Assembly: GCF_054482525.1 (NCBI RefSeq)
Contig: NZ_CM137006.1
DNA: 64,000 bases
Reading direction: 5' to 3' (one strand)
Shown: piece by piece, positions 11,062 through 53,854 of the stretch
Layout: each line of letters opens with the position of its first letter
Position numbering within the stretch: position 1 is the first letter of the stretch
Notes under the pieces: model-generated
What the model was told of the DNA's origin: nothing
The model's database searches: none
What the model saw: the letters and a program-made list of their open reading frames with translations, nothing else
Program-made: the position numbers and the translations under genes

Positions 11062-11784
11062 TTAGCGCGTCGCCCAACCCTGTTTGTGCAAATAATCCAG
11101 TATAAATGGGCGGCTTTCTTTAATGATTGTTCGGCGGATATGATCGCTCCAGGTATCCCGGCGATTATTGCTGCCACGTGTGAGGTAATATTCCGCCAGT
11201 TGTTCGTCATACTGCGCCAGTGCGTCTTTATCCAGCGGTTGATAGTTGTTTTCATGCACCAAAATGGAGGCCGGTAAACGCGGCTTAAGATCCGGATTAT
11301 CCGCAGGCCAGCCAAGGCACAGCCCAAACAGCGGCAGAACATGCTGCGGTAATTTCAGCAGTTCCGTCACCGCTTCAATATTATTGCGCAGGCCGCCGAT
11401 ATATACCCCGCCCAATCCCAGCGATTCCGCTGCGGTTAACGCATTCTGCGCCATCATTGCTGTATCAACGACACCGAGCAACAGTTGCTCCGCCAGGCCA
11501 AGTTGTGCATCCGGACAGATCTGTAAATGGCGGTTAAAGTCGGCACAGAACACCCAGAACTCCGCCGCTTGCGCTACGTGTTTTTGCCCGCCGGTCAGCG
11601 TCACCAGTTCATCACGTAACGCTTTGTCGGTAATGCGAATAATGCTACTGCACTGCAAAAAACTGGAACTGGACGTCGCACGGGCGCTGTTAATAATCGC
11701 CTCACGCTGCGCTTCGGAAATGGGTTCATCAGTGAAATGGCGAATGGAGCGATGGCCACAAATAAGTTCAATGGTTGGCGTCAT
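11062..11784 (-). CDS. nfsA: Oxygen-insensitive NADPH nitroreductase NfsA
   Basis: 240-aa nitroreductase-family ORF. Confidence 0.9.
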   Translation of the reverse strand: MTPTIELICGHRSIRHFTDEPISEAQREAIINSARATSSSSFLQCSSIIRITDKALRDELVTLTGGQKHVAQAAEFWVFCADFNRHLQICPDAQLGLAEQLLLGVVDTAMMAQNALTAAESLGLGGVYIGGLRNNIEAVTELLKLPQHVLPLFGLCLGWPADNPDLKPRLPASILVHENNYQPLDKDALAQYDEQLAEYYLTRGSNNRRDTWSDHIRRTIIKESRPFILDYLHKQGWATR

Positions 11785-12055
11785 TATCTTTTTCTCTTTC
11801 TGAACGTGAATATTGCGGTGGACGGTTCATCAGCTGTGGGGCAAGACGTTTTGCCACCTGAAGAATAACCACCACCGCAGCGGGAAGCATGAGCAAAACA
11901 CCGAGAAAAATCATCAGAATCTGCACTTCTGGCCGAGAAAATGGCTCAGGCAGCGACAGGGAGCCGCTTACCGACAGCAGCGCCACCGCCAGCAACATCA
12001 TTCCGATAAATTCCAGTATCAACACGCTTGTAGGCAATTTACCGATCGCGCGCAT
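11768..12055 (-). CDS. ybjC: Small membrane protein YbjC
   Basis: 95-aa ORF overlapping the nfsA start (ybjC-nfsA operon). Confidence 0.8.
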   Translation of the reverse strand: MRAIGKLPTSVLILEFIGMMLLAVALLSVSGSLSLPEPFSRPEVQILMIFLGVLLMLPAAVVVILQVAKRLAPQLMNRPPQYSRSEREKDNDANH

Positions 12056-12214
12056 ACGCTTCCCTCTGCAAAGTGAGCCTTCAGTCTAAAACTTTTCACT
12101 GTATTGTGTTTAACAGTTATAGCTTTTAGCAATTAATGCAACAGGTTAAACCTACTTTCAGCGAATACATTTTAGCGTGATCATTACAGGCATAAATCTA
12201 TGAGGAGAGAAATA

Positions 12215-12472
12215 ATGCAAACCGTTATTTTTGGTCGTCCGGGTTGCCCTTACTGTGTGCGTGCAAAAGATCTGGCTGAGAAATTGAGCAATGAACGCGA
12301 TAATTTTCAGTATCAGTATGTTGATATTCGTGCGGAAGGGATCACTAAAGAAGATCTACAACAAAAGGCAGGTAAACCCGTAGAAACCGTGCCGCAGATT
12401 TTTGTCGATCAGCAACATATCGGCGGCTATACCGATTTTGCTGCATGGGTGAAAGAGAATCTGGACGCCTGA
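12215..12472 (+). CDS. grxA: Glutaredoxin 1
   Basis: MQTVIFGRPGCPYC... CPYC active site, 85 aa. Confidence 0.92.
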   Translation: MQTVIFGRPGCPYCVRAKDLAEKLSNERDNFQYQYVDIRAEGITKEDLQQKAGKPVETVPQIFVDQQHIGGYTDFAAWVKENLDA

Positions 12473-12501
12473 TCGTCTGACAAGCCCTCGCGTTGAGGGC
12501 T

Positions 12502-12879
12502 TTATTGATTTTTTCTGTGCTGTGGTTTAAACAAACTACTGATAAATAAGAAACACAGTGCCCCCAGCGCACACCAGAACACCGCACTCAATAACCATGC
12601 CAGCTCTTGCCAGAATGAGCGCGTCGGTGAAAAAAACAGCCGCATAATAAGCATTGAACAGGGTGCCGCCAGCATTGCGCCAAACAGAGGTTTCAGGACT
12701 TCTCTACGCTGTGAAAAGAAGCTGGCAACTGCTCCAGGAAGAATGAAAAACAGCAAGCCGATTTCAGGATGCCCGGCAGCCCGAAAAGCGCCTTTCATGT
12801 GCGTCGCCAGAAAAAGGCACACCACAATGAAGAGGACAAAACAGCAGATTGCCCCCGCCCAACGTTGTTTATGTTTCAC
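12502..12879 (-). CDS. ybjM: Inner membrane protein YbjM
   Basis: 125-aa hydrophobic ORF; synteny. Confidence 0.8.
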   Translation of the reverse strand: MKHKQRWAGAICCFVLFIVVCLFLATHMKGAFRAAGHPEIGLLFFILPGAVASFFSQRREVLKPLFGAMLAAPCSMLIMRLFFSPTRSFWQELAWLLSAVFWCALGALCFLFISSLFKPQHRKNQ

Positions 12880-13148
12880 TCGTTCCTCCTGACACTGCGT
12901 CTATCGAACACATTTTTCGCCAGTGTGGCGTTCAGTAAGATAAAGCCGCTTCGCATTCCATGCTAATATAGGCCAACGCAATTCATATAGCCGTTGATAC
13001 CTAATGTGATTACACTAGTAAAATATATTGTTACTTTACTATCGTTTAGGTGCGCTGAATGAATCTGCGCCCTGAATTCTGGTAAAAAACATTATCGTAA
13101 ATTACCATTTCTTTCAACAGCTTACTAGTAAACAAGAAGTTAGCCTCC

Positions 13149-14834
13149 GTGAATATAAACGTCGCCGAATTGTTAAATGGGAATTACATTCTGTTATTAT
13201 TTGTGGTCCTCGCGCTTGGGCTATGTCTCGGAAAGTTACGACTTGGTTCGATCCAACTGGGTAATTCCATTGGCGTTTTAGTCGTATCGCTGTTATTAGG
13301 CCAACAACATTTCAGCATTAACACCGACGCGCTTAATCTTGGCTTTATGCTGTTTATTTTCTGCGTCGGGGTCGAAGCCGGACCGAACTTTTTTTCCATT
13401 TTTTTTCGCGATGGGAAAAATTATCTAATGTTAGCACTGGTGATGGTTGGCAGTGCGCTGGTCATCGCCTTAGGGTTAGGTAAGCTGTTTGGCTGGGATA
13501 TTGGCCTGACGGCCGGTATGTTAGCAGGATCTATGACGTCAACACCGGTTCTGGTCGGTGCTGGCGATACACTGCGTCATTCCGGCATGGAAAGCAGGCA
13601 GCTCTCACTGGCACTGGATAATCTGAGCCTCGGGTATGCCTTAACCTATTTAATCGGTCTGGTGAGTTTGATTGTTGGTGCGCGTTACTTGCCGAAATTG
13701 CAGCATCAGGACTTACAGACCAGCGCCCAGCAAATCGCCCGCGAACGTGGCCTGGACACAGATGCCAACCGTAAGGTTTATTTGCCGGTGATCCGCGCCT
13801 ACCGCGTCGGCCCGGAGCTGGTAGCCTGGACCGACGGCAAAAATCTGCGTGAACTGGGTATTTATCGACAAACCGGCTGCTACATTGAACGTATTCGACG
13901 TAACGGGATTCTGGCAAATCCAGACGGTGATGCCGTGCTACAAATGGGCGATGAAATAGCGTTGGTAGGCTACCCCGACGCCCACGCCCGACTCGATCCC
14001 AGCTTCCGTAACGGCAAAGAAGTTTTCGATCGTGACCTTCTCGACATGCGTATCGTCACTGAAGAAGTGGTCGTTAAAAACCATAACGCTGTTGGCAAAC
14101 GCCTGGCACAACTGAAGTTGACCGATCACGGTTGCTTCCTTAACCGCGTCATTCGTAGCCAGATTGAGATGCCGATAGATGACAACGTCGTGCTTAACAA
14201 AGGTGACGTTTTACAAGTCAGCGGCGATGCCCGTCGCGTAAAAACCATCGCCGATCGCATCGGCTTTATCTCGATTCACAGCCAGGTCACTGACTTGCTG
14301 GCATTCTGCGCCTTCTTTGTTATTGGGCTGATGATCGGGATGATCACCTTCCAGTTCAGCACATTCAGTTTCGGCATGGGGAACGCTGCCGGGTTGTTAT
14401 TCGCCGGAATTATGCTGGGCTTTATGCGTGCTAACCACCCGACCTTCGGTTACATTCCGCAAGGTGCATTAAGCATGGTGAAAGAGTTCGGCTTGATGGT
14501 GTTTATGGCAGGCGTTGGTCTGAGCGCCGGTAGCGGTATTAATAACGGCCTGGGCGCGATTGGCGGTCAGATGTTGATTGCCGGATTGATTGTCAGTCTG
14601 GTGCCCGTGGTTATCTGCTTCTTGTTCGGTGCTTATGTATTGCGAATGAACCGCGCACTGTTGTTTGGCGCAATGATGGGCGCACGCACCTGCGCGCCGG
14701 CAATGGAGATCATCAGTGATACAGCTCGCAGTAACATCCCGGCGCTGGGCTATGCGGGCACCTACGCAATCGCCAACGTCCTGCTGACGCTGGCAGGGAC
14801 AATCATCGTCATGGTATGGCCAGGATTAGGATAA
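13149..14834 (+). CDS. ybjL: Putative transporter YbjL (AAE family, two TrkA-C domains)
   Basis: 561-aa ORF with GTG start; synteny. Confidence 0.85.
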
Positions 14835-44479: not shown

Positions 44480-44630
44480 CCTCTCTACCGGAGCCATGCG
44501 CTCCGGTTTTCCCTTCTTTTTACATCCTGTACATCACATCAAATCATTAAACTTGCATTAACTTATTTATAACTTATATTGTCACATGCAAATCATTATA
44601 GTTTCGAATGAAAGTTAATGCGAGGTGGTT

Positions 44631-45896
44631 ATGGCTTCTACTTTTACCAGCGACACATTGCCTGCCGATCACAAAGCAGCTATCCGTCAGATGAAGCACG
44701 CGCTGCGGGCACAGCTTGGCGACGTCCAGCAGATCTTTAATCAGCTAAGCGATGACATTGCTACGCGAGTGGCTGAAATCAACGCACTCAAAGCACAGGG
44801 CGATGCCGTCTGGCCGGTGCTGTCTTATGCCGATATCAAAGCAGGTCATGTTACTGCAGAGCAGCGCGAACAGATTAAACGTCGCGGTTGTGCGGTGATA
44901 AAAGGCCATTTCCCCCGCGAACAAGCGCTAGGCTGGGATCAGTCGATGCTGGACTATCTGGACCGCAACCGCTTTGACGAGGTCTACAAAGGCCCCGGCG
45001 ATAATTTCTTCGGGACGCTCAGCGCTTCACGTCCCGAGATTTACCCCATCTACTGGTCGCAGGCGCAAATGCAGGCTCGCCAGAGTGAAGAAATGGCGAA
45101 TGCGCAGTCGTTTCTCAATCGTCTGTGGACATTTGAAAGTGATGGAAAGCAATGGTTTAACCCGGATGTGAGCGTCATCTACCCTGACCGTATCCGCCGC
45201 CGTCCGCCCGGAACGACCTCCAAAGGTCTTGGAGCGCATACCGACTCCGGGGCACTGGAACGCTGGCTGCTTCCAGCGTATCAGCGCGTTTTCGCCAACG
45301 TCTTTAATGGCAATCTGGCGCAATATGATCCCTGGCATGCGGCACATCGTACGGAAGTTGAAGAGTACACGGTGGACAACACCACCAAATGTTCCGTGTT
45401 TCGGACATTCCAGGGCTGGACAGCGCTCTCTGATATGCTGCCTGGTCAGGGGCTGCTGCACGTCGTGCCTATTCCTGAAGCCATGGCGTACGTACTGTTA
45501 CGTCCGCTGCTTGATGATGTGCCGGAGGATGAACTGTGCGGCGTAGCGCCCGGAAGAGTATTGCCGGTATCAGAGCAATGGCATCCACTGTTGATTGAGG
45601 CGTTAACCAGCATTCCAAAACTCGAAGCCGGAGACTCCGTCTGGTGGCACTGCGACGTCATCCATTCCGTTGCCCCCGTTGAAAATCAACAGGGCTGGGG
45701 CAACGTGATGTACATTCCTGCGGCACCGATGTGCGAGAAAAATCTTGCCTACGCGCACAAGGTGAAGGCCGCACTGGAAAAAGGCGCATCGCCGGGCGAC
45801 TTCCCGCGCGAGGACTATGAAACAAACTGGGAAGGACGCTTTACGCTTGCCGACCTCAACATTCACGGTAAGCGAGCGTTGGGAATCGACAGCTGA
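44631..45896 (+). CDS. ybiU: DUF1479-family protein YbiU
   Basis: 421 aa from MASTFTSD; synteny. Confidence 0.85.
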   Translation: MASTFTSDTLPADHKAAIRQMKHALRAQLGDVQQIFNQLSDDIATRVAEINALKAQGDAVWPVLSYADIKAGHVTAEQREQIKRRGCAVIKGHFPREQALGWDQSMLDYLDRNRFDEVYKGPGDNFFGTLSASRPEIYPIYWSQAQMQARQSEEMANAQSFLNRLWTFESDGKQWFNPDVSVIYPDRIRRRPPGTTSKGLGAHTDSGALERWLLPAYQRVFANVFNGNLAQYDPWHAAHRTEVEEYTVDNTTKCSVFRTFQGWTALSDMLPGQGLLHVVPIPEAMAYVLLRPLLDDVPEDELCGVAPGRVLPVSEQWHPLLIEALTSIPKLEAGDSVWWHCDVIHSVAPVENQQGWGNVMYIPAAPMCEKNLAYAHKVKAALEKGASPGDFPREDYETNWEGRFTLADLNIHGKRALGIDS

Positions 45897-46966
45897 GTGT
45901 CGTACAGCCCTTCCCGTTCCACGGCGGTGTTCCCTTTTCCTGGGCGAACCCGCCGCACTGACTCCCGCACCGCCAATCGTCCGTGCAGCAGCAGCGAGCC
46001 CACCGGAGCATCCGGGCGAATCAGCCGCTGTTGCAACATTTGCACCGCTTCATTGCCTAGCTCATCGCGTGGCACATGCACAGCCGTCAGGGGAACATCC
46101 TCGATTGCCGCAAGGTTAAAGCCGTCGATACTCATCACCGAGACATCCTGTGGTACGCGCAGACCACGACGATGTAGCGCATTTACCGTTCCCGCCGCCA
46201 TAAAATCCCCGCCGACCAGAAACGCCGTCGGCAACGTCTTGCCATTGGCGGCATCCAGCCACGCTCCGACCTTTTCTTCCGCTTCTTTAGCGCTAAAACT
46301 GCTGATATTCAGCAAATGACGGTCATGGTGAAAGGCCAGATTATGCTGACGCCATGATTCTTTAATCCCTGCAAACCGCTGCTCCATAGTGTAGCGGCGC
46401 AGGCACATCACATTCATCACCTCCCGGTGACCCATTTCAAACAGATAGCGGGCGGCGAACGCGCCAATTAACCGATGGTCCGGCGCAATCGCCGGGAGGC
46501 GCATTCGTTCATCACGGCAGTTGATCAGCACACAAGGCTTAGCGAGATCGGCGGCCAGATCATGGATGTGCGGATCGTCAATCCCCAGCAGGATCGCCGC
46601 CTGCGTATCTGCTTCATTCATCCGCGAGAGAAATAGCGCGGGATCGCTGTCAAACTCCTCCAGCGCGCAGTAACGCAGCCGCACTTCATGCGGCGATAAC
46701 GCTTTGCTGATGCTCTGGATCACACGGTAATAAAAGATATCAGATCGTTGGTCAAAAGCGCGTTGCGGCGCGAAAATAATCAGGTTGTTCAGCAACATAC
46801 GACCTGCTGCCATGCCATCCATCACGCCCAACTCACGCGCGCAGGCCAGCACCTGTTCGCGAGCGCGTGCACTGGTATTCGCTTTGCCAGCCAGCACCCG
46901 CGAAACCGTACTCGGCGATAGCCCGGTACGTGCGGCGATATCGGCGATTTTCAACTTCTTGTCCAT
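45863..46966 (-). CDS. LacI-family transcriptional regulator (accessory; absent from K-12 at this position)
   Basis: N-terminal helix-turn-helix MDKKLKIADIAARTGLSPSTVSRVLAG and periplasmic-binding-protein-like sugar-binding core; 367 aa from ATG 46966; 3' end overlaps the ybiU 3' end by 34 bp. Confidence 0.85.
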   Translation of the reverse strand: MDKKLKIADIAARTGLSPSTVSRVLAGKANTSARAREQVLACARELGVMDGMAAGRMLLNNLIIFAPQRAFDQRSDIFYYRVIQSISKALSPHEVRLRYCALEEFDSDPALFLSRMNEADTQAAILLGIDDPHIHDLAADLAKPCVLINCRDERMRLPAIAPDHRLIGAFAARYLFEMGHREVMNVMCLRRYTMEQRFAGIKESWRQHNLAFHHDRHLLNISSFSAKEAEEKVGAWLDAANGKTLPTAFLVGGDFMAAGTVNALHRRGLRVPQDVSVMSIDGFNLAAIEDVPLTAVHVPRDELGNEAVQMLQQRLIRPDAPVGSLLLHGRLAVRESVRRVRPGKGNTAVEREGLYDTQLSIPNARLP

Positions 46967-47260
46967 TTTGTGATCTGCCTCTAATTCGGAAATGACAGAA
47001 TTTTCATGAGCAAAAAAGCCCATTCTGTCTGGCATTAAATCCATTTCAGTAATGTATATCAGTCACTCATGGAAAAACGTGCACAAAACCCGCTTTCTTT
47101 CGCTTTTAGGGTCTCTTACTGTGAATTGGTAGAACAACTTCCATACAAAAATAATGGAAAAACGAACAATAAAGACTTTATTTATCAAAAAGTTAAAAGT
47201 GGTGTGACAACTCCATTCTGACGTTGCCGCACAAACCCTATACCATTCTGTGGAGTGCAT

Positions 47261-48562
47261 ATGAGTCAGGGTATCAATAACGATATGACTGCCAGTAAAC
47301 CGCGCCATATCGTCAAAAATCTGCGTTGGTGGATACTGGTCCTTTTTTTGCTCGGTGTTACTGTCAACTACATCACGCGTAACTCGCTGGGTATTCTCGC
47401 CCCCGAACTGAAAAGCAGCCTGGGGATTACCACCGAACAATATTCCTGGATTGTAGGTGCTTTCCAGCTCGCCTATACCCTATTCCAACCGTTGTGTGGA
47501 TGGCTGATTGACGTCATTGGCCTCAAACTGGGCTTTATGATCTGCGCGGGACTGTGGGCGCTGGCCTGTCTGATGCATGCGGGGGCGGGAAACTGGGTAC
47601 ATCTGGCGCTGTTGCGCTTCTTTATGGGCGGTGCGGAAGCCGCGGCAACCCCAGCAAACGCCAAAACCATCGGTGAATGGTTTCCAAAATCAGAACGCCC
47701 GATCGCCGCAGGCTGGGCAGGCGTCGGTTTTTCCATCGGTGCCATGCTGGCCCCACCGATTATCTATTTTGCCCACGCTTCATTCGGCTGGCAGGGTGCA
47801 TTTATGTTCACTGGCATCCTGGCGATGCTGTGGGTGGTGCTGTGGTGGGCGTTCTATCACAACCCGGATAAGCATCCTAACCTCAGCAAAGCCGAACTGG
47901 ACTTTATCCGCCAGGATAACGAAGCGCCCCCTGTCAAGTTACCCTTTCTGACCGCACTGAAAACCGTAGGCAAAAATAAACGCTTTTACGGTATCGCTAT
48001 CCCGGCCTTTATGGCAGAACCGGCGTGGGCGGTGATGAGTTTCTGGGTTCCGCTATACCTGTCCAAAACCTATGGCATGGACCTGAAGCAGATCGCATTA
48101 TTCGCCTGGTTGCCGTTCCTCGCCGCTGATCTTGGCAGTATTGCCAGCGGCTATCTGACCAAACTTTACACCCGCCTGTTTGGGCTGAGTCGTGTGAACT
48201 CCGTTGTCGCATCATCGGTCAGTGGCGCATTCCTGATGGTTTCGCTGGCGGTGATGGCCTTTACCAATAACCCGTATATCGCCATCGTCCTTATTTCCAT
48301 CGGCGGCTTCGGTCACCAGATCATCTCCTGCATGCTGAGCGCACTGGTGGTGGAATCCTTCGACAAAGGTCAGATGGCCACTGTTAACGGCATGCGCGGT
48401 TCTGCCGCGTGGATCGCAAGTTTCCTGTTCTCCCTGATTATCGGGGTTACCGCTGACAAAATCGGCTTTACCCCCCTGTTTATCGCCATGGGCTTCTTTG
48501 ACCTGATTGGTGCTTTCTTCCTGGTCACCTTTATTGCTGAACGTCGCGCAAAACGCGCCTGA
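47261..48562 (+). CDS. MFS transporter of the anion:cation symporter family, ExuT-like (accessory)
   Basis: About 40% identity by eye to E. coli ExuT across the N-terminal half (LAPELKSSLGITTEQYSWIVGAFQLAYTLFQP...); 12-TM MFS; start ATG 47261 or GTG 47255. Confidence 0.85.
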   Translation: MSQGINNDMTASKPRHIVKNLRWWILVLFLLGVTVNYITRNSLGILAPELKSSLGITTEQYSWIVGAFQLAYTLFQPLCGWLIDVIGLKLGFMICAGLWALACLMHAGAGNWVHLALLRFFMGGAEAAATPANAKTIGEWFPKSERPIAAGWAGVGFSIGAMLAPPIIYFAHASFGWQGAFMFTGILAMLWVVLWWAFYHNPDKHPNLSKAELDFIRQDNEAPPVKLPFLTALKTVGKNKRFYGIAIPAFMAEPAWAVMSFWVPLYLSKTYGMDLKQIALFAWLPFLAADLGSIASGYLTKLYTRLFGLSRVNSVVASSVSGAFLMVSLAVMAFTNNPYIAIVLISIGGFGHQIISCMLSALVVESFDKGQMATVNGMRGSAAWIASFLFSLIIGVTADKIGFTPLFIAMGFFDLIGAFFLVTFIAERRAKRA

Positions 48563-48576
48563 GAGTGGATGTAAAC

Positions 48577-50940
48577 ATGAAAACGCTGAAAAACTGGACC
48601 CTGCACAAACAGTCTGCCCACCACGTTGAACTGCTGGTCGATGGCCAGCATATCCTGTGCCTGTACGTGCTGGAAGAAAATCTGTTCCGCGTGCTGTTAA
48701 AACGCAAAGGCGAGCTGGCGCTGGATCGCACCTGGAGCATTGCTCCGGCGCAGGATGTGCCATGGGAAGGGCGCAGCCGCGAAGATCTCAGCGGCTTTAG
48801 CCTGCCCGCGTGGACATTGATCCAGCACGACGACACCGTGGTTATCGCCACCGAGTCACTGCGTGCCACCGTTCACCAGCCGCTGTGGCTGGAGTGGCAC
48901 TATCGTAACAACGAAGGCGAATGGCTGCCGTTGGTGAATGACCGCCCGACCAGCGCTTATCTGCTGAATGCCCACGGCGACGGCGTGGCGCACTATCAGA
49001 GCCGTCGTAAAGATGAACGCTTTTATGGCCTCGGAGATAAAGCCGGCGACCTGCAACGCAACGGTAAACGTTACGAGATGCGTAACCTCGACGCGATGGG
49101 CTACAACGCCGTTAGTACTGACCCGTTGTACAAACACATTCCATTCACCATCACCCGCCGCGATGACATTAGCTTCGGCCTGTTTTATGACAACCTCAGC
49201 AGCTGCTGGCTGGATCTGGGCAACGAGATCGACAACTACCACACCGCCTATCGCCGCTGGCAGGCGGAAGCGGGTGATATCGACTACTACCTGTTTACCG
49301 GCGAACGCGTACTTGATATCACCAAAGCCTTCGTACGCCTGACCGGAAAAACCCTGTTCGGACCGAAATGGAGCCTGGGCTACAGCGGTTCAACTATGCA
49401 CTACACCGATGCGCCGGACGCACAAAATCAGTTGATGAACTTTATCCGCCTGTGTGAAGAACATGCGATTCCCTGCGATTCGTTCCAGCTCTCTTCCGGT
49501 TATACCTCAATTAACGGCAAGCGCTATGTGTTCAACTGGAATTACGACAAAGTGCCGCAGCCGAAAGTGATGAGCCAGGCATTTCACAATGCTGGTTTGC
49601 ACCTGGCCGCCAATATCAAGCCGTGCCTGTTGCAGGATCACCCACGCTATAACGAAGTGGCAGAAAGAGGACTGTTCATCCGTGATTCAGAAACAGATGA
49701 ACCAGAACGTTCCAGCTTCTGGGATGACGAAGGTTCTAACCTCGACTTTACTAATCCGCAGACCATACAGTGGTGGCAGGAAGGCGTGACCACACAGCTT
49801 CTGGAGATGGGTATCGACTCCACCTGGAACGACAACAACGAATTCGAAGTGTGGGACGGTGAAGCACGCTGTCACGGCTTTGGTCAGACGATCGCGATCA
49901 AACATATTCGCCCGGTGATGCCACTGCTGATGATGCGAGCCTCGATGGAAGCCCAGCAACGTTTCGCTCCGGAAAAACGTCCGTACTTGATCTCCCGCTC
50001 CGGCTGCGCGGGAATGCAGCGCTATGTGCAGACCTGGAGCGGCGATAACCGCACTAGCTGGGACACTCTGCGCTACAACACCCGCATGGGTCTGGGGATG
50101 AGCCTCTCCGGGCTGTATAACCTCGGTCACGACGTCGGCGGTTTCTCCGGTGATAAGCCGGACCCGGAACTGTTTGTACGCTGGGTACAAAACGGCGTGA
50201 TGCATCCGCGCTTTACGATTCACTCATGGAACGATGACCATACCGTAAACGAACCGTGGATGTATCCGGGTGTCACTCCGGCGATCCGCAGCGCTATTGA
50301 GTTGCGCTATCGCCTGCTGCCCTACTTTTATACCCTGATGTGGCAGGCATACGCCGATGATGAACCAATGCTACGTCCGACTTTCCTTGACCACGAGCAC
50401 GACGTTCAGACTTTTGAAGAGTGTGATGACTTCCTGCTTGGTCGCGATATTTTGGTTGCCAGCGTCGTAGAGCAAGGCGAGCGCCAGCGCCGTGTATGGC
50501 TGCCAGATAACGAAACTGGCTGGTACGATTTCTACAACGGCGAATGGTTCAGTGGCGGTCAGTGGATCACCCTCGACGCACCGCTGGAGAAACTGCCGCT
50601 GATGGTGCGTGCCGGGGCTGGTCTACCGCTCAGCAAACGCATCACCTATGTGAGCGCAGAACAAGACGATACCCGCGAACTGAAACTGTTCCCGCTGAAA
50701 GGTGTGGGCACAACGTCCGGCCTGCTGTTTGAAGACGATGGCGAAAGCTGGGGCTACCAAACTGGTAATGCGCTTTGGGTGGAATGGGAAATGGTTTGCG
50801 ATGGGGCGACCATCAACCTGAAAGTCAACGCGCGCGGGGATTATCGTCCTGCATGGAGTGCACTGAAAGTGTCATTACCAGTGGAAGAAAAACGCACGCT
50901 GCTGGTCAATGGTGTTGAAGGGAGTGAATGGATGCGTTAA
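48577..50940 (+). CDS. Glycoside hydrolase family 31 alpha-glycosidase (accessory), specificity unknown
   Basis: GH31 motifs: nucleophile region STWNDNNEFE, acid/base region QTWSGDNRTSW and GHDVGGF; 787 aa from ATG 48577; 14 nt after the transporter stop (operon). Confidence 0.85.
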   Translation: MKTLKNWTLHKQSAHHVELLVDGQHILCLYVLEENLFRVLLKRKGELALDRTWSIAPAQDVPWEGRSREDLSGFSLPAWTLIQHDDTVVIATESLRATVHQPLWLEWHYRNNEGEWLPLVNDRPTSAYLLNAHGDGVAHYQSRRKDERFYGLGDKAGDLQRNGKRYEMRNLDAMGYNAVSTDPLYKHIPFTITRRDDISFGLFYDNLSSCWLDLGNEIDNYHTAYRRWQAEAGDIDYYLFTGERVLDITKAFVRLTGKTLFGPKWSLGYSGSTMHYTDAPDAQNQLMNFIRLCEEHAIPCDSFQLSSGYTSINGKRYVFNWNYDKVPQPKVMSQAFHNAGLHLAANIKPCLLQDHPRYNEVAERGLFIRDSETDEPERSSFWDDEGSNLDFTNPQTIQWWQEGVTTQLLEMGIDSTWNDNNEFEVWDGEARCHGFGQTIAIKHIRPVMPLLMMRASMEAQQRFAPEKRPYLISRSGCAGMQRYVQTWSGDNRTSWDTLRYNTRMGLGMSLSGLYNLGHDVGGFSGDKPDPELFVRWVQNGVMHPRFTIHSWNDDHTVNEPWMYPGVTPAIRSAIELRYRLLPYFYTLMWQAYADDEPMLRPTFLDHEHDVQTFEECDDFLLGRDILVASVVEQGERQRRVWLPDNETGWYDFYNGEWFSGGQWITLDAPLEKLPLMVRAGAGLPLSKRITYVSAEQDDTRELKLFPLKGVGTTSGLLFEDDGESWGYQTGNALWVEWEMVCDGATINLKVNARGDYRPAWSALKVSLPVEEKRTLLVNGVEGSEWMR

Positions 50941-51119
50941 ATCATTACCGGGGCCGGGAGGCGACTGCGCCTTACCCGGTCAAGCCATCGAATCCTTTAC
51001 CTCAGTATTTCACGCTGCAGGAAGGCAGCAAACCTGTAAACCCCGGGAGCTTAAATAAGTAAGTGACCGGGGTGAACAGGTGAAGCCAATGCATCTGCCG
51101 CATGAAAGACGGCGGGAAA

Positions 51120-52715
51120 TTAACCGTCGATCCCTTTACTACGCAGGTAATCTTCGTAATTACCGCTAAAGTCGATCACGCGTTCCGGGGTGATTTCCAG
51201 AATGCGGGTCGCCAGGGAGCTTACAAACTCACGGTCGTGAGAAACAAAGATCAGCGTGCCCTGATACAGTTCCAGTGCCATGTTCAGCGACTCAATGGAT
51301 TCCATATCCAGGTGGTTGGTCGGTTCGTCCATGATCAGAATGTTCGGCTTCTGCATCATTAACTTACCAAACAGCATCCGCCCTTTTTCTCCACCGGAAA
51401 GCACTTTCGCTGGCTTTTTGATGTCGTCCTGGCTGAACAGCAAACGACCGAGAATGCTGCGTACCGCCTGCTCGTCATCGCCTTCCTGCTTCCACTGACT
51501 CATCCATTCGAACACGGTCAGATCATTTTCGAACTCATATTCGTGGTCCTGGGCGTAGTAACCAATGCGCGCGTTTTCAGACCATTTTACGGTGCCGCTG
51601 TCCGGTTGCAGATCGCCCACCAGCGTTTTCAGCAGCGTTGATTTACCGACGCCGTTGGTACCCAGTACCGCCAGTTTTTCACCGACTTCCAGCAGCAGGT
51701 TGAGATTTTTAAACAGTGGACCGTTATCAAACCCTTTGGTCAGACCTTCCACTTCCAGCGCGTTACGGAACAGTTTCTTATCCTGTTCAAAACGGATGAA
51801 CGGATTCTGACGGCTGGAGGCTTTCACCTCTTCCAGTTTGATTTTATCAATCTGGCGCGCGCGCGAAGTTGCCTGGCGAGATTTCGAGGCGTTGGCGCTA
51901 AAGCGGCTAACGAAAGATTGCAGCTCAGCAATCTGCGCTTTCTTCTTGGCGTTATCGGCCAGCAGACGTTCACGCGCCTGGGTCGCCGCCGTCATGTACT
52001 CATCGTAGTTACCCGGATAAACGCGCAGCTCGCCGTAATCCAGATCCGCCATGTGGGTACAAACCATGTTAAGGAAGTGACGGTCGTGCGAGATGATGAT
52101 CATGGTGCTGTCACGCTCGTTCAGCACCTGTTCCAGCCAACGAATGGTGTCGATGTCGAGGTTGTTGGTCGGTTCGTCGAGCAGGAGAATGTCCGGATCA
52201 GCAAACAGCGCCTGCGCCAGCAGCACACGCAGCTTCCAGCCAGGAGCAACTTCACTCATCGGGCCGTAGTGCTGTTCCACTGGAATTCCCACGCCAAGCA
52301 ACAGTTCACCGGCGCGAGCTTCCGCAGAGTAACCGTCCATTTCGCCGTATTTCACTTCCAGATCGGCCACTTTATAGCCGTCTTCTTCACTCATTTCCGG
52401 CAAAGCATAGATGCGGTCACGCTCCTGCTTCACTTCCCACAACTCTTTATGCCCCATGATCACCGTATCCAGCACAGTGAACTCTTCAAAGGCAAACTGA
52501 TCCTGACGCAGCTTACCAATGCGCTCGTTGGGATCGAGGGAAACGTTACCCAACGTCGGCTCTAAGTCGCCGCCGAGGATCTTCATAAAGGTGGATTTAC
52601 CACTACCGTTCGCGCCAATCAGGCCGTAACGGTTGCCGCCGCCGAATTTGACGGAAATGTTTTCAAACAACGGCTTACTGCCGAACTGCATGGTGACGTT
52701 ACTGGAAACTAACAC
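51120..52715 (-). CDS. ybiT: ABC-F family ATPase YbiT
   Basis: About 530 aa; two ABC cassettes ([18 protein letters not shown]) and no membrane domain. Confidence 0.9.
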
Positions 52716-52933
52716 AGGCGTATCCTGAAAAGAGATATGACAAACCGCGCATTATGCCATAAGTCTGAAAGAAGATCCTGCTCCTCGCTTAAGGTCTACA
52801 CTCAAGCCAAAGGCAAAAAATGTGATTTCGTACACATCTGATTTCACTGTGAGCTGGAATGAACTTATAATGCGCTTCCAATACTCTAATATTCTCAACC
52901 CAATGGCCTGCCAGGCACAAAATCTCGCTTAAC

Positions 52934-53854
52934 ATGAATATGAAATTGAAAACATTATTCGCAGCGGCCTTCGCTGTTGTCGGCTTTTGCAGTACCGCCT
53001 CTGCGGTAACTTATCCTCTGCCAACCGACGGGAGTCGCCTGGTTGGTCAGAATCAGGTGATCACCATTCCTGAAGGTAACACTCAGCCGCTGGAGTATTT
53101 TGCCGCCGAGTACCAGATGGGGCTTTCCAATATGATGGAAGCGAACCCCGGTGTGGATACCTTCCTGCCGAAAGGCGGTACTGTACTGAACATTCCGCAG
53201 CAGCTGATCCTGCCGGATACCGTTCATGAAGGCATCGTCATTAACAGTGCAGAGATGCGTCTGTATTACTATCCGAAAGGAACCAACACCGTTATCGTGC
53301 TGCCGATCGGCATTGGTCAGTTAGGCAAAGACACGCCTATCAACTGGACCACCAAAGTTGAGCGTAAAAAAGCAGGCCCGACCTGGACGCCAACCGCTAA
53401 AATGCACGCAGAGTACCGCGCTGCGGGCGAACCGCTTCCGGCTGTCGTTCCGGCAGGTCCGGATAACCCGATGGGTCTGTATGCACTCTACATCGGTCGC
53501 CTGTACGCAATCCATGGCACCAACGCCAACTTCGGTATCGGCCTGCGTGTAAGTCATGGTTGTGTGCGTCTGCGTAACGAAGACATCAAATTCCTGTTCG
53601 AGAAAGTACCAGTCGGTACCCGCGTACAGTTTATTGATGAGCCGGTAAAAGCGACTACCGAACCAGACGGCAGCCGTTACATTGAAGTCCATAACCCGCT
53701 GTCTACCACCGAAGCCCAGTTTGAAGGTCAGGAAATTGTGCCAATTACCCTGACGAAGAGCGTGCAGACAGTGACCGGTCAGCCAGATGTTGACCAGGTT
53801 GTTCTTGATGAAGCGATCAAAAATCGTTCCGGGATGCCGGTTCGTCTGAATTAA
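52934..53854 (+). CDS. ldtB: L,D-transpeptidase LdtB (YbiS)
   Basis: 306 aa; signal peptide and YkuD domain with catalytic SHGCVRL. Confidence 0.9.

Follow-up and report, generated by a model that had tools for sequence, protein, structure and literature searches.

Escherichia coli has two known enzymes of glycoside hydrolase family 31 (GH31), the sulfoquinovosidase YihQ and the alpha-xylosidase YicI. YihQ provides a precedent for the action of a GH31 enzyme on a C6-anionic analogue of glucose, with a transporter gene adjacent and a dedicated or core pathway fed by the product; the yih transporters are of the GPH type, and the yih operon encodes its own downstream pathway. Free hexuronates are carried by ExuT, which has no associated glycosidase and functions with UxaC and UxuAB in the UxuR/ExuR regulon. 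Import of small alpha-glucuronides followed by intracellular cleavage is the role of the GH67, GH115 and GH4 alpha-glucuronidases and of the aldouronate clusters of Paenibacillus and Geobacillus; the GH67 and GH115 enzymes, which are inverting, and the GH4 enzymes, which are NAD dependent, are unrelated to GH31 in fold and mechanism. Here we describe three genes, coding for a LacI-family regulator, an ExuT-like transporter of the major facilitator superfamily (MFS) and a GH31 glycosidase, that lie between ybiU and ybiT in a 64,000-nucleotide stretch of E. coli DNA (contig NZ_CM137006.1 of RefSeq assembly GCF_054482525.1, hereafter the window). This locus is real, conserved and under purifying selection, it is likely to be linked to glucuronate metabolism, and the functional prediction developed below is specific and testable.

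The genes had been noted in an initial annotation made from the letters of the window alone, which placed them in about 5.2 kb between ybiU and ybiT and could assign them to no pathway. All three long open reading frames (ORFs) were confirmed, with starts taken from the RefSeq models of identical loci, and Pfam and NCBIfam supported the three family assignments: LacI, ExuT-like MFS of the anion:cation symporter (ACS) family, and GH31. The regulator gene (45863-46966, minus strand, 367 aa; 1,104 nt in the RefSeq model) is divergent from an operon composed of the transporter gene (47261-48562, plus strand, 433 aa) and the GH31 gene (48577-50940, plus strand, 787 aa), and a control region of 294 bp with a GC content of ~42-46% separates the two units (46967-47260). 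The names given to the trio in RefSeq, UniRef and other databases are generic, the E. coli copies being annotated only as "LacI family regulator," "MFS transporter" and "glycoside hydrolase family 31 protein." Our literature searches yielded no description of the locus, of ybiU or ybiT with a glycosidase, or of an Enterobacteriaceae combination of GH31, MFS and LacI genes. As for the sugar utilization initially proposed, the catabolic unit stands; the probable link is with hexuronate (glucuronate) metabolism rather than with a generic sugar.

Genes of glucuronate catabolism accompany members of this clade in other genera. Eight loci, of the Erwinia/Pantoea type, have no LacI gene; in every one of them, the MFS-GH31 unit is divergent from uxuA, with uxuR present in seven of them, uxaC in six and uxuB in three; the contig of the eighth ends inside uxuA. 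At locus L069 (L numbers designate the loci fetched for comparison), the curated models scored above their cut-offs for UxuA (683 versus 200), UxuB (803 versus 603), UxaC (668 versus 387) and UxuR (451 versus 442). The contexts of distant members of the clade (41-48% identity) were similar in content. Locus L094 encodes a UxuB-like (fructuronate reductase-like) protein and UxaC, followed by ManD (738 versus a cut-off of 550), KdgK, Eda, DctQ, DctM, the GH31 enzyme and DctP, in that order. At L096, ManD is followed by UxaC, a reductase, Eda, KdgK and the GH31 enzyme, and L105 combines a GH2 enzyme, whose best model is beta-glucuronidase, with DctPQM and the GH31 enzyme. In Paraburkholderia (L093), the GH31 gene stands between genes for an ExuT-like MFS transporter (45%) and a porin. 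K-12 Ashwell pathway genes were seen in L088 and L104. The mannonate (glucuronate) branch accounts for uxuA, uxuB and the ManD gene, and no altronate-branch genes were seen in the contexts examined. A second context recurs in two metagenomic loci, L095 (9001-15416) and L106 (3425-11481), which code for the GH31 enzyme together with a protein of ~620-650 aa, a transporter and a PIG-L/BshB-like de-N-acetylase; UxaC is encoded nearby. The ~620-650-aa protein has weak GDE_C/GH63-like Pfam matches and no NCBIfam match, and the context suggests catabolism of an alpha-linked oligosaccharide containing N-acetylglucosamine (GlcNAc) and glucuronic acid (GlcA).

The transporter shares 43% identity with K-12 ExuT over 414 aa (E value of 3e-120). 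It scored 266 bits with TIGR00893, below the cut-off of 395, and is thus related to ExuT without being its equivalog. Its best match in the PDB was DgoT (6E9N, E value of 8e-39). An Arg in transmembrane segment 1 (R40, in NYITRN) and a Glu in transmembrane segment 4 (E126, in GGAEAA) align with DgoT residues that we take to be the carboxylate-binding Arg and the coupling Glu. On these grounds the protein belongs to the ACS/ExuT-like branch of the MFS, and its substrate is predicted to be anionic.

The GH31 enzyme shares with canonical alpha-glucosidases of the family, such as GANAB, FjDex31A, Sulfolobus solfataricus MalA and human MGAM/GAA, a four-domain architecture (PF01055 TIM barrel, E value of 5e-88; PF13802 Gal_mutarotas_2; PF21365 C-terminal domain; PF17137 DUF5110) and the fold, with template-modeling (TM) scores of 0.82 to 0.87, at only 20-26% identity. 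An AlphaFold2 (AF2) model built from a 79-sequence alignment had a predicted local distance difference test (pLDDT) score of 96.8 and a predicted TM (pTM) score of 0.95; a single-sequence prediction, with a pLDDT of 33, was unusable. The nearest solved structures, FjDex31A (Foldseek TM score of 0.87) and endoplasmic reticulum glucosidase II, are at most 26% identical, and none comes from the enzyme's own clade. No signal peptide was visible in its N terminus, MKTLKNWTLHKQSAHH, and it is predicted to be cytoplasmic. In motifs read from 118 full-length representatives of 50%-identity clusters, the clade has xLSSGY, NIKP, WNDNNE and PRFxIHSW where canonical GH31 enzymes have LDIDY, I(I/V)(D/N)P, WNDMNE and PFFRNH, respectively, and these motifs are shared down to ~30-35% identity. 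By sequence, the protein is a member of a distinct clade and not of the canonical GANAB/MGAM/MalA type.

We analyzed the active-site pocket in an alignment of 79 sequences, comprising 70 clade members and 9 canonical enzymes. The nucleophile of the WxDxxE motif (D419, in WNDNNE) and the acid/base Asp of the WxGD motif (D490, in WSGDN) are invariant in 79 of 79. R474 and H549 are also conserved in both groups, which have the same O2/O3-binding Arg and His. In contrast, six pocket positions are switched, MGAM Tyr299, Asp327, Ile328, Ile364, Met444 and Arg598 corresponding to M274, S306, S307, N346, N420 and T547 in the clade; in the published list of MGAM pocket residues, Asp327 bonds the 4-OH (PMC10456934). 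Three basic residues, R316, K348 and R545, are invariant in 70 of 70 clade members and absent from the canonical enzymes. In the AF2 model, each of these residues is at the C-terminal end of a barrel strand. The six switches and the three gained basic residues imply that the C4-C6 side of the -1 pocket, formerly acidic and hydrophobic, is now polar and basic, a remodeling that would favor glucuronic acid, possibly 4-O-methylated, in subsite -1.

The control region provided another line of evidence. The regulator is a bona fide member of the LacI/GalR family without an equivalog: 16 NCBIfam LacI-family models (RbsR/CytR/PurR type) matched across residues 29-365, all with scores far under their equivalog cut-offs, and the orthologues contain Pfam LacI helix-turn-helix and Peripla_BP_1/3 domains. 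Phylogenetic footprinting of 29 orthologous control regions revealed two imperfect palindromes as candidate operators. O1, ATGACAGAATTTTCAT (46992-47007; consensus ATGAAAnAATTTTCAT), is the most conserved block, and O2, ATGGAAAAACGTGCAC (47069-47084; consensus ATGAnAAnnnTTGCAT), is the second. They are related sequences, and the left half of O2 is repeated at 47154-47173 (direct repeat D8). Sites matching ATGAAAnnnnTTTCAT with at most two mismatches occur in 75 of the 77 LacI-type control regions scanned; across the window, the same motif had 10 matches versus 4.0 expected. No perfect palindrome of at least 16 nt is present in the E. coli control region, and the operators emerged by footprinting alone.

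A candidate UxuR/ExuR-type box, TTGGTAGAACAA (47126-47137), differs from TTGGTnnACCAA by one mismatch and overlaps sigma70-like -35 and -10 elements identified in a promoter scan (47126-47155). In Serratia, Pectobacterium, Hafnia, Atlantibacter and Enterobacillus, a perfect TTGGTnnACCAA palindrome has a constant location near nt 160 of the control region, and the E. coli box is its positional homologue; TTGGTAGAACAA occupies this position in E. coli, Kluyvera and Pseudocitrobacter. The Erwinia/Pantoea-type control regions have two TTGGTnnACCAA-type boxes in eight of eight loci. Validation of the motif relied on the control regions of uxuA and uxuR in K-12, Erwinia and Pantoea. The K-12 gntP-uxuA and uxuR control regions contain three such boxes, each with one mismatch (three in 10 kb versus 0.36 expected), and the E. 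coli candidate box is of the same quality. A UxuR/ExuR consensus had no match with at most one mismatch in the K-12 uxaC-exuT region. Like the ExuT system, the module combines an ExuT-type carrier with UxuR-type boxes and uxu/uxa genes in other genera, whereas in E. coli it has its own LacI-family regulator and a degenerate UxuR-type box.

We propose, at roughly even odds, that the trio is an ancestral Enterobacteriaceae module for the uptake and cleavage of a small acidic alpha-glycoside, yielding D-glucuronate for the Ashwell pathway. The ExuT paralogue would import the anionic glycoside by proton symport. The cytoplasmic GH31 enzyme would hydrolyze it, most likely as a retaining alpha-glucuronidase with GlcA, possibly 4-O-methylated, in subsite -1. 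The released glucuronate would enter the core UxaC-UxuB-UxuA-KdgK-Eda pathway already present in E. coli. The LacI-family protein would act as a repressor at the two conserved operators and, probably together with UxuR/ExuR at the conserved box, would control the mfs-gh31 operon. The assignment of glucuronic acid as the -1 sugar falls somewhat short of an even chance. It is with similar reserve that we regard the LSSGY/NIKP/WNDNNE clade as a possible new family of retaining alpha-glucuronidases, the carboxylate analogue of sulfoquinovosidases. Candidate substrates are speculative and include the xylan aldobiouronic acid in which GlcA or 4-O-methyl-GlcA (MeGlcA) is alpha-1,2-linked to xylose, GlcA-alpha-1,2-inositol of plant sphingolipids, and alpha-glucuronosylglycerol.

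Several points weigh against this proposal. No GH31 alpha-glucuronidase is known to us, and literature searches found none; they also yielded no described match for the clade in GH31 subfamily work and nothing on the motif WNDNNE. The pocket geometry is deduced from alignment and secondary structure only. The genomic context shows glucuronate to be a product or co-substrate and is compatible with its occupying either subsite -1 or subsite +1, and 4 of the 10 metagenomic contexts (contigs L089 to L092) are uninformative because of their short length. The UxuR-type box of E. coli, with its mismatch, is not significant on its own (three matches in the window versus 2.1 expected), and several Enterobacter and Klebsiella control regions have lost the box. 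Finally, Enterobacter asburiae JDR-1 reportedly grows on methylglucuronoxylose (MeGAX), a possible phenotypic correlate that is taken from paper titles, and searches for literature on MeGAX and for JDR-1 follow-up work found nothing.

The main rival to the proposal places glucuronate in the aglycone (+1) position: the GH31 enzyme would remove a neutral or amino alpha-sugar, such as glucose (Glc) or glucosamine, from a glycosyl-glucuronate, e.g., Glc-alpha-1,x-GlcA. The disaccharide would then be anionic because of its reducing-end uronate alone. The ExuT-like and tripartite ATP-independent periplasmic (TRAP) transporters and the glucuronate operon contexts are explained equally well by this arrangement, the closest characterized relatives of the enzyme are alpha-glucosidases, and the de-N-acetylase and second putative glycosidase of L095 and L106 suggest a hetero-oligosaccharide with alpha-GlcNAc. 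However, the changes of the clade cluster on the C4-C6 side of the -1 sugar and add three basic residues, which would be unexpected for plain glucose. We consider the aglycone position unlikely, though a contender.

A less probable possibility is an ordinary alpha-glucosidase acting on a neutral alpha-glucoside of the maltose, isomaltose, nigerose or kojibiose type, for which the ExuT-like carrier was merely recruited. Database names do read "alpha-glucosidase," alpha-glucosidases and a dextranase provide the closest structures, and the best NCBIfam match is the MalA alpha-glucosidase model; its score of 305 bits, however, is far under the cut-off of 800 (the alpha-xylosidase model scored 230 bits versus a cut-off of 606). 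The canonical residues are replaced at six positions of the pocket, among them the universally conserved O4-binding Asp, and the genomic association is with glucuronate catabolism rather than with starch or maltose genes, so that the uxu/uxa genes and UxuR boxes would be left unexplained. Cronobacter has an orthologue and tests positive for alpha-glucosidase (PMC2779193), but its diagnostic genes gluA and gluB lie elsewhere. Identity of the GH31 gene with gluA/gluB was considered and rejected: those genes are in the palatinose operon (ESA_02709-15), and their primers miss the GH31 locus.

A second sulfoquinovosidase or alpha-xylosidase system, paralogous to yihOPQ or yicJI, would match the activities of both known GH31 enzymes of E. 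coli, and sulfoquinovosyl glycerol is also anionic, but it is hardly tenable: the enzyme scored 112 bits with YihQ, a member of another GH31 clade, and 128 bits with YicI versus 272 bits with alpha-glucosidases, alignment with the K-12 proteins revealed neither the YihQ insertion QDWSGIRMTSFGKRVMW with its sulfonate-binding residues (presumably the Arg and Trp of a loop insertion after beta3 which, with a Tyr, form the RWY motif) nor the YicI motifs FDCFW (after beta3) and KTDFGE (nucleophile), and the transporter is of the ACS/ExuT type, not the GPH type.

If the alpha-glucuronidase proposal is true, a new substrate class would be added to GH31, among the most studied glycosidase families, and Enterobacteriaceae of gut, soil and plant habitats would have a simple two-gene route to alpha-glucuronides of plant cell-wall or membrane glycans. 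Alpha-glucuronides of plant or microbial origin, such as xylan aldouronic acids, head groups of glycosyl inositol phosphorylceramides (GIPCs) or glucuronosylglycerol, would become available to Klebsiella, Enterobacter, Serratia, plant-associated enterics and ~11% of E. coli. The still unassigned methylglucuronoxylose use reported for E. asburiae would also be explained.

The trio was present in 577 of 5,426 complete E. coli genomes (~11%), always as a single chromosomal copy, in agreement with its initial designation as accessory within the species. That it had been inserted between ybiU and ybiT was not borne out. Among the best 80 loci kept from a species scan, GH31 orthologues of 75-91% identity occurred throughout the Enterobacterales, and the trio occupies the same position in more than 15 Enterobacteriaceae genera. 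A synteny table, obtained by tblastn of the window proteins against the fetched loci, showed the full order ybiW-ybiV-ybiU-[LacI-MFS-GH31]-ybiT-ldtB in Klebsiella, Raoultella, Enterobacter, Lelliottia, Leclercia, Kosakonia, Kluyvera, Pseudocitrobacter, Citrobacter werkmanii, C. amalonaticus, Trabulsiella, Pluralibacter, Phytobacter and Salmonella enterica subsp. diarizonae. The trio is followed by ybiT-ldtB without ybiU in Cronobacter, Siccibacter, Buttiauxella, Cedecea and Mangrovibacter, and Serratia, Pectobacterium, Hafnia, Erwinia and Pantoea have the unit at another genomic location.

The comparison of base composition with flanking core genes that the initial annotation had called for revealed no deviation: at codon level, the GC content at third positions (GC3) is 0.63-0.65 for the trio, inside the flank range of 0.53-0.65. 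Synonymous divergence (dS) from Kluyvera, Salmonella IIIb, Citrobacter and Klebsiella is 0.9-1.6 for the trio versus 0.7-2.5 for the flanks, both being saturated alike, and between the window and strain BroCaecum-55 it is 0.045-0.10 versus 0.046-0.18. The ratio of nonsynonymous to synonymous divergence (dN/dS) of the three genes is 0.04-0.10. These values argue against a recent foreign donor, indicate purifying selection and suggest that the trio has been in E. coli for about as long as its lineages have existed.

Three states of the site were distinguished in E. coli. In the first, represented by the window, SCU-482 and BroCaecum-55, the trio separates ybiU from ybiT. In the second, the convergent genes ybiU and ybiT are direct neighbors with a spacer of 167-184 bp, as in strains B (L001) and O157:H7 (L100), from which the K-12-like empty state was read. 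In the third, ybiV and ybiT are separated by a spacer of ~200 bp, both the trio and ybiU being missing, as in the B2 strain LF82 (L099, NC_011993.1, 7982-10589, equivalent to 44480-51119 of the window). Of these empty-site strains, B belongs to phylogroup A, O157:H7 to E and LF82 to B2. Overall, ybiU is missing from ~1,200 of the 5,426 genomes. The K-12-type state is best read as a deletion of the trio and that of LF82 as a larger deletion that includes ybiU, which implies at least two different deletions at the site. The shared position, the flank-like GC3 and dS values and the loss of ybiU in the B2 strain examined argue for an ancestral locus lost repeatedly. By these comparisons, the trio appears to be an ancestral enterobacterial module that is accessory in E. 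coli through repeated loss. A segment absent from K-12 need not be an insertion, and here the K-12 type is best read as the derived, deleted state. As the locus is near-universal in Klebsiella, Enterobacter and their relatives but carried by a minority of E. coli, it could be a niche determinant between E. coli lineages.

Alternatively, the trio might have been acquired horizontally from another genus, e.g., Kluyvera, by homologous recombination in ybiU and ybiT. Kluyvera has the nearest relatives of the E. coli LacI and MFS proteins (89-93%), but those of the flanks are in Citrobacter and Salmonella, which makes an old exchange between genera possible. In addition, no other Escherichia species representative was among the best 80 loci. 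Between the window and SCU-482, dS of the LacI and MFS genes is 0.004-0.006 and that of the flanks is 0.03-0.07, and this near-identity despite differing flanks points to recombinational spread within E. coli. Acquisition from another genus is nevertheless improbable. The dS to Kluyvera, 0.9-1.4, is not below that of the flanks (0.7-2.2), GC3 is not deviant, and E. coli alleles of the trio differ from each other as the flanks do. More than 15 genera share the same position, and the second, independent deletion state of LF82 marks the site as prone to loss. As initially reported, the locus has no integrase- or recombinase-like ORF and no tRNA, and no flanking direct repeats were found beyond chance 12- to 16-mers.

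In a related observation, the ybiT-ldtB allele of the window (51127-53854) occurs at ≥99% identity in 9 of 5,423 genomes, and the trio at this threshold in 487. The nearest common ybiT-ldtB alleles are B2-like (LF82, 98.8%). Either the strain of the window, which is identical to SCU-102, has an unusual flank allele or the trio has spread by recombination. In Salmonella, a GH31 protein of S. enterica subsp. salamae clusters at 90% identity with that of E. coli, and subsp. diarizonae has the complete locus in synteny (L075), but the genome representing the species S. enterica was not among the best 80 loci kept; retention in Salmonella thus seems as patchy as in E. coli.

The boundaries of the locus were defined by base-by-base comparison with the empty site of E. 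coli B. Window positions 45884-51126 (5,243 bp) stand where strain B has 184 bp, a spacer that contains a repetitive extragenic palindromic (REP)-like palindrome and a hairpin. The last ~4 codons of ybiU (44625-45896, plus strand) and the last ~2 codons of ybiT (51120-52715, minus strand; NCBIfam PRK15064, 1067 bits) consequently differ between the two states. Use of the YbiU and YbiT C termini as a marker of ancestry was tried and discarded, these residues being too variable between genera. The LacI gene and ybiU are convergent and overlap by 34 nt at their 3′ ends (45863-45896), an overlap also annotated in other trio-positive genomes and in Klebsiella (L003). Downstream of the operon, the spacer between the convergent GH31 gene and ybiT (50941-51126) is predicted to fold with -75.2 kcal/mol (z = -4.9 versus shuffled sequences), forming GC-rich hairpins right after the GH31 stop codon. 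This structured spacer is a probable terminator region, in which a scan detected no canonical T-tract terminator.

Other observations concern individual genomes. In Cronobacter sakazakii (L005), the ybiY-ybiU block is absent, moeB being followed directly by the LacI gene, and a two-partner secretion (TPS)/filamentous hemagglutinin-type gene (11111-13255) lies between the GH31 gene and ybiT. An apparent extra copy of the trio in E. coli strain IH5, a partial match, was rejected as an assembly artifact made of ~1-kb fragments. The stretch concerned (L103, NZ_CP168949.1:5048186-5061163) belongs to a RefSeq chromosome labeled complete and consists of ~1-kb pieces of unrelated genes (tuf, casA, phage capsid, bla and an MFS/GH31 junction), all flagged "partial in the middle of a contig." In strain HH97 (L002, NZ_CP116409.1, 7856-10476), 2.6 kb without annotation occupy the place of ybiU, which matches only piecewise at ~83% identity; the stretch may represent a degraded or replaced ybiU or a sequencing problem. 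Finally, in the O157:H7 strain 8368 (L100, 4020-6451), the annotation gives a frameshift in ybiW, which codes for a glycyl-radical enzyme and lies upstream of the locus.

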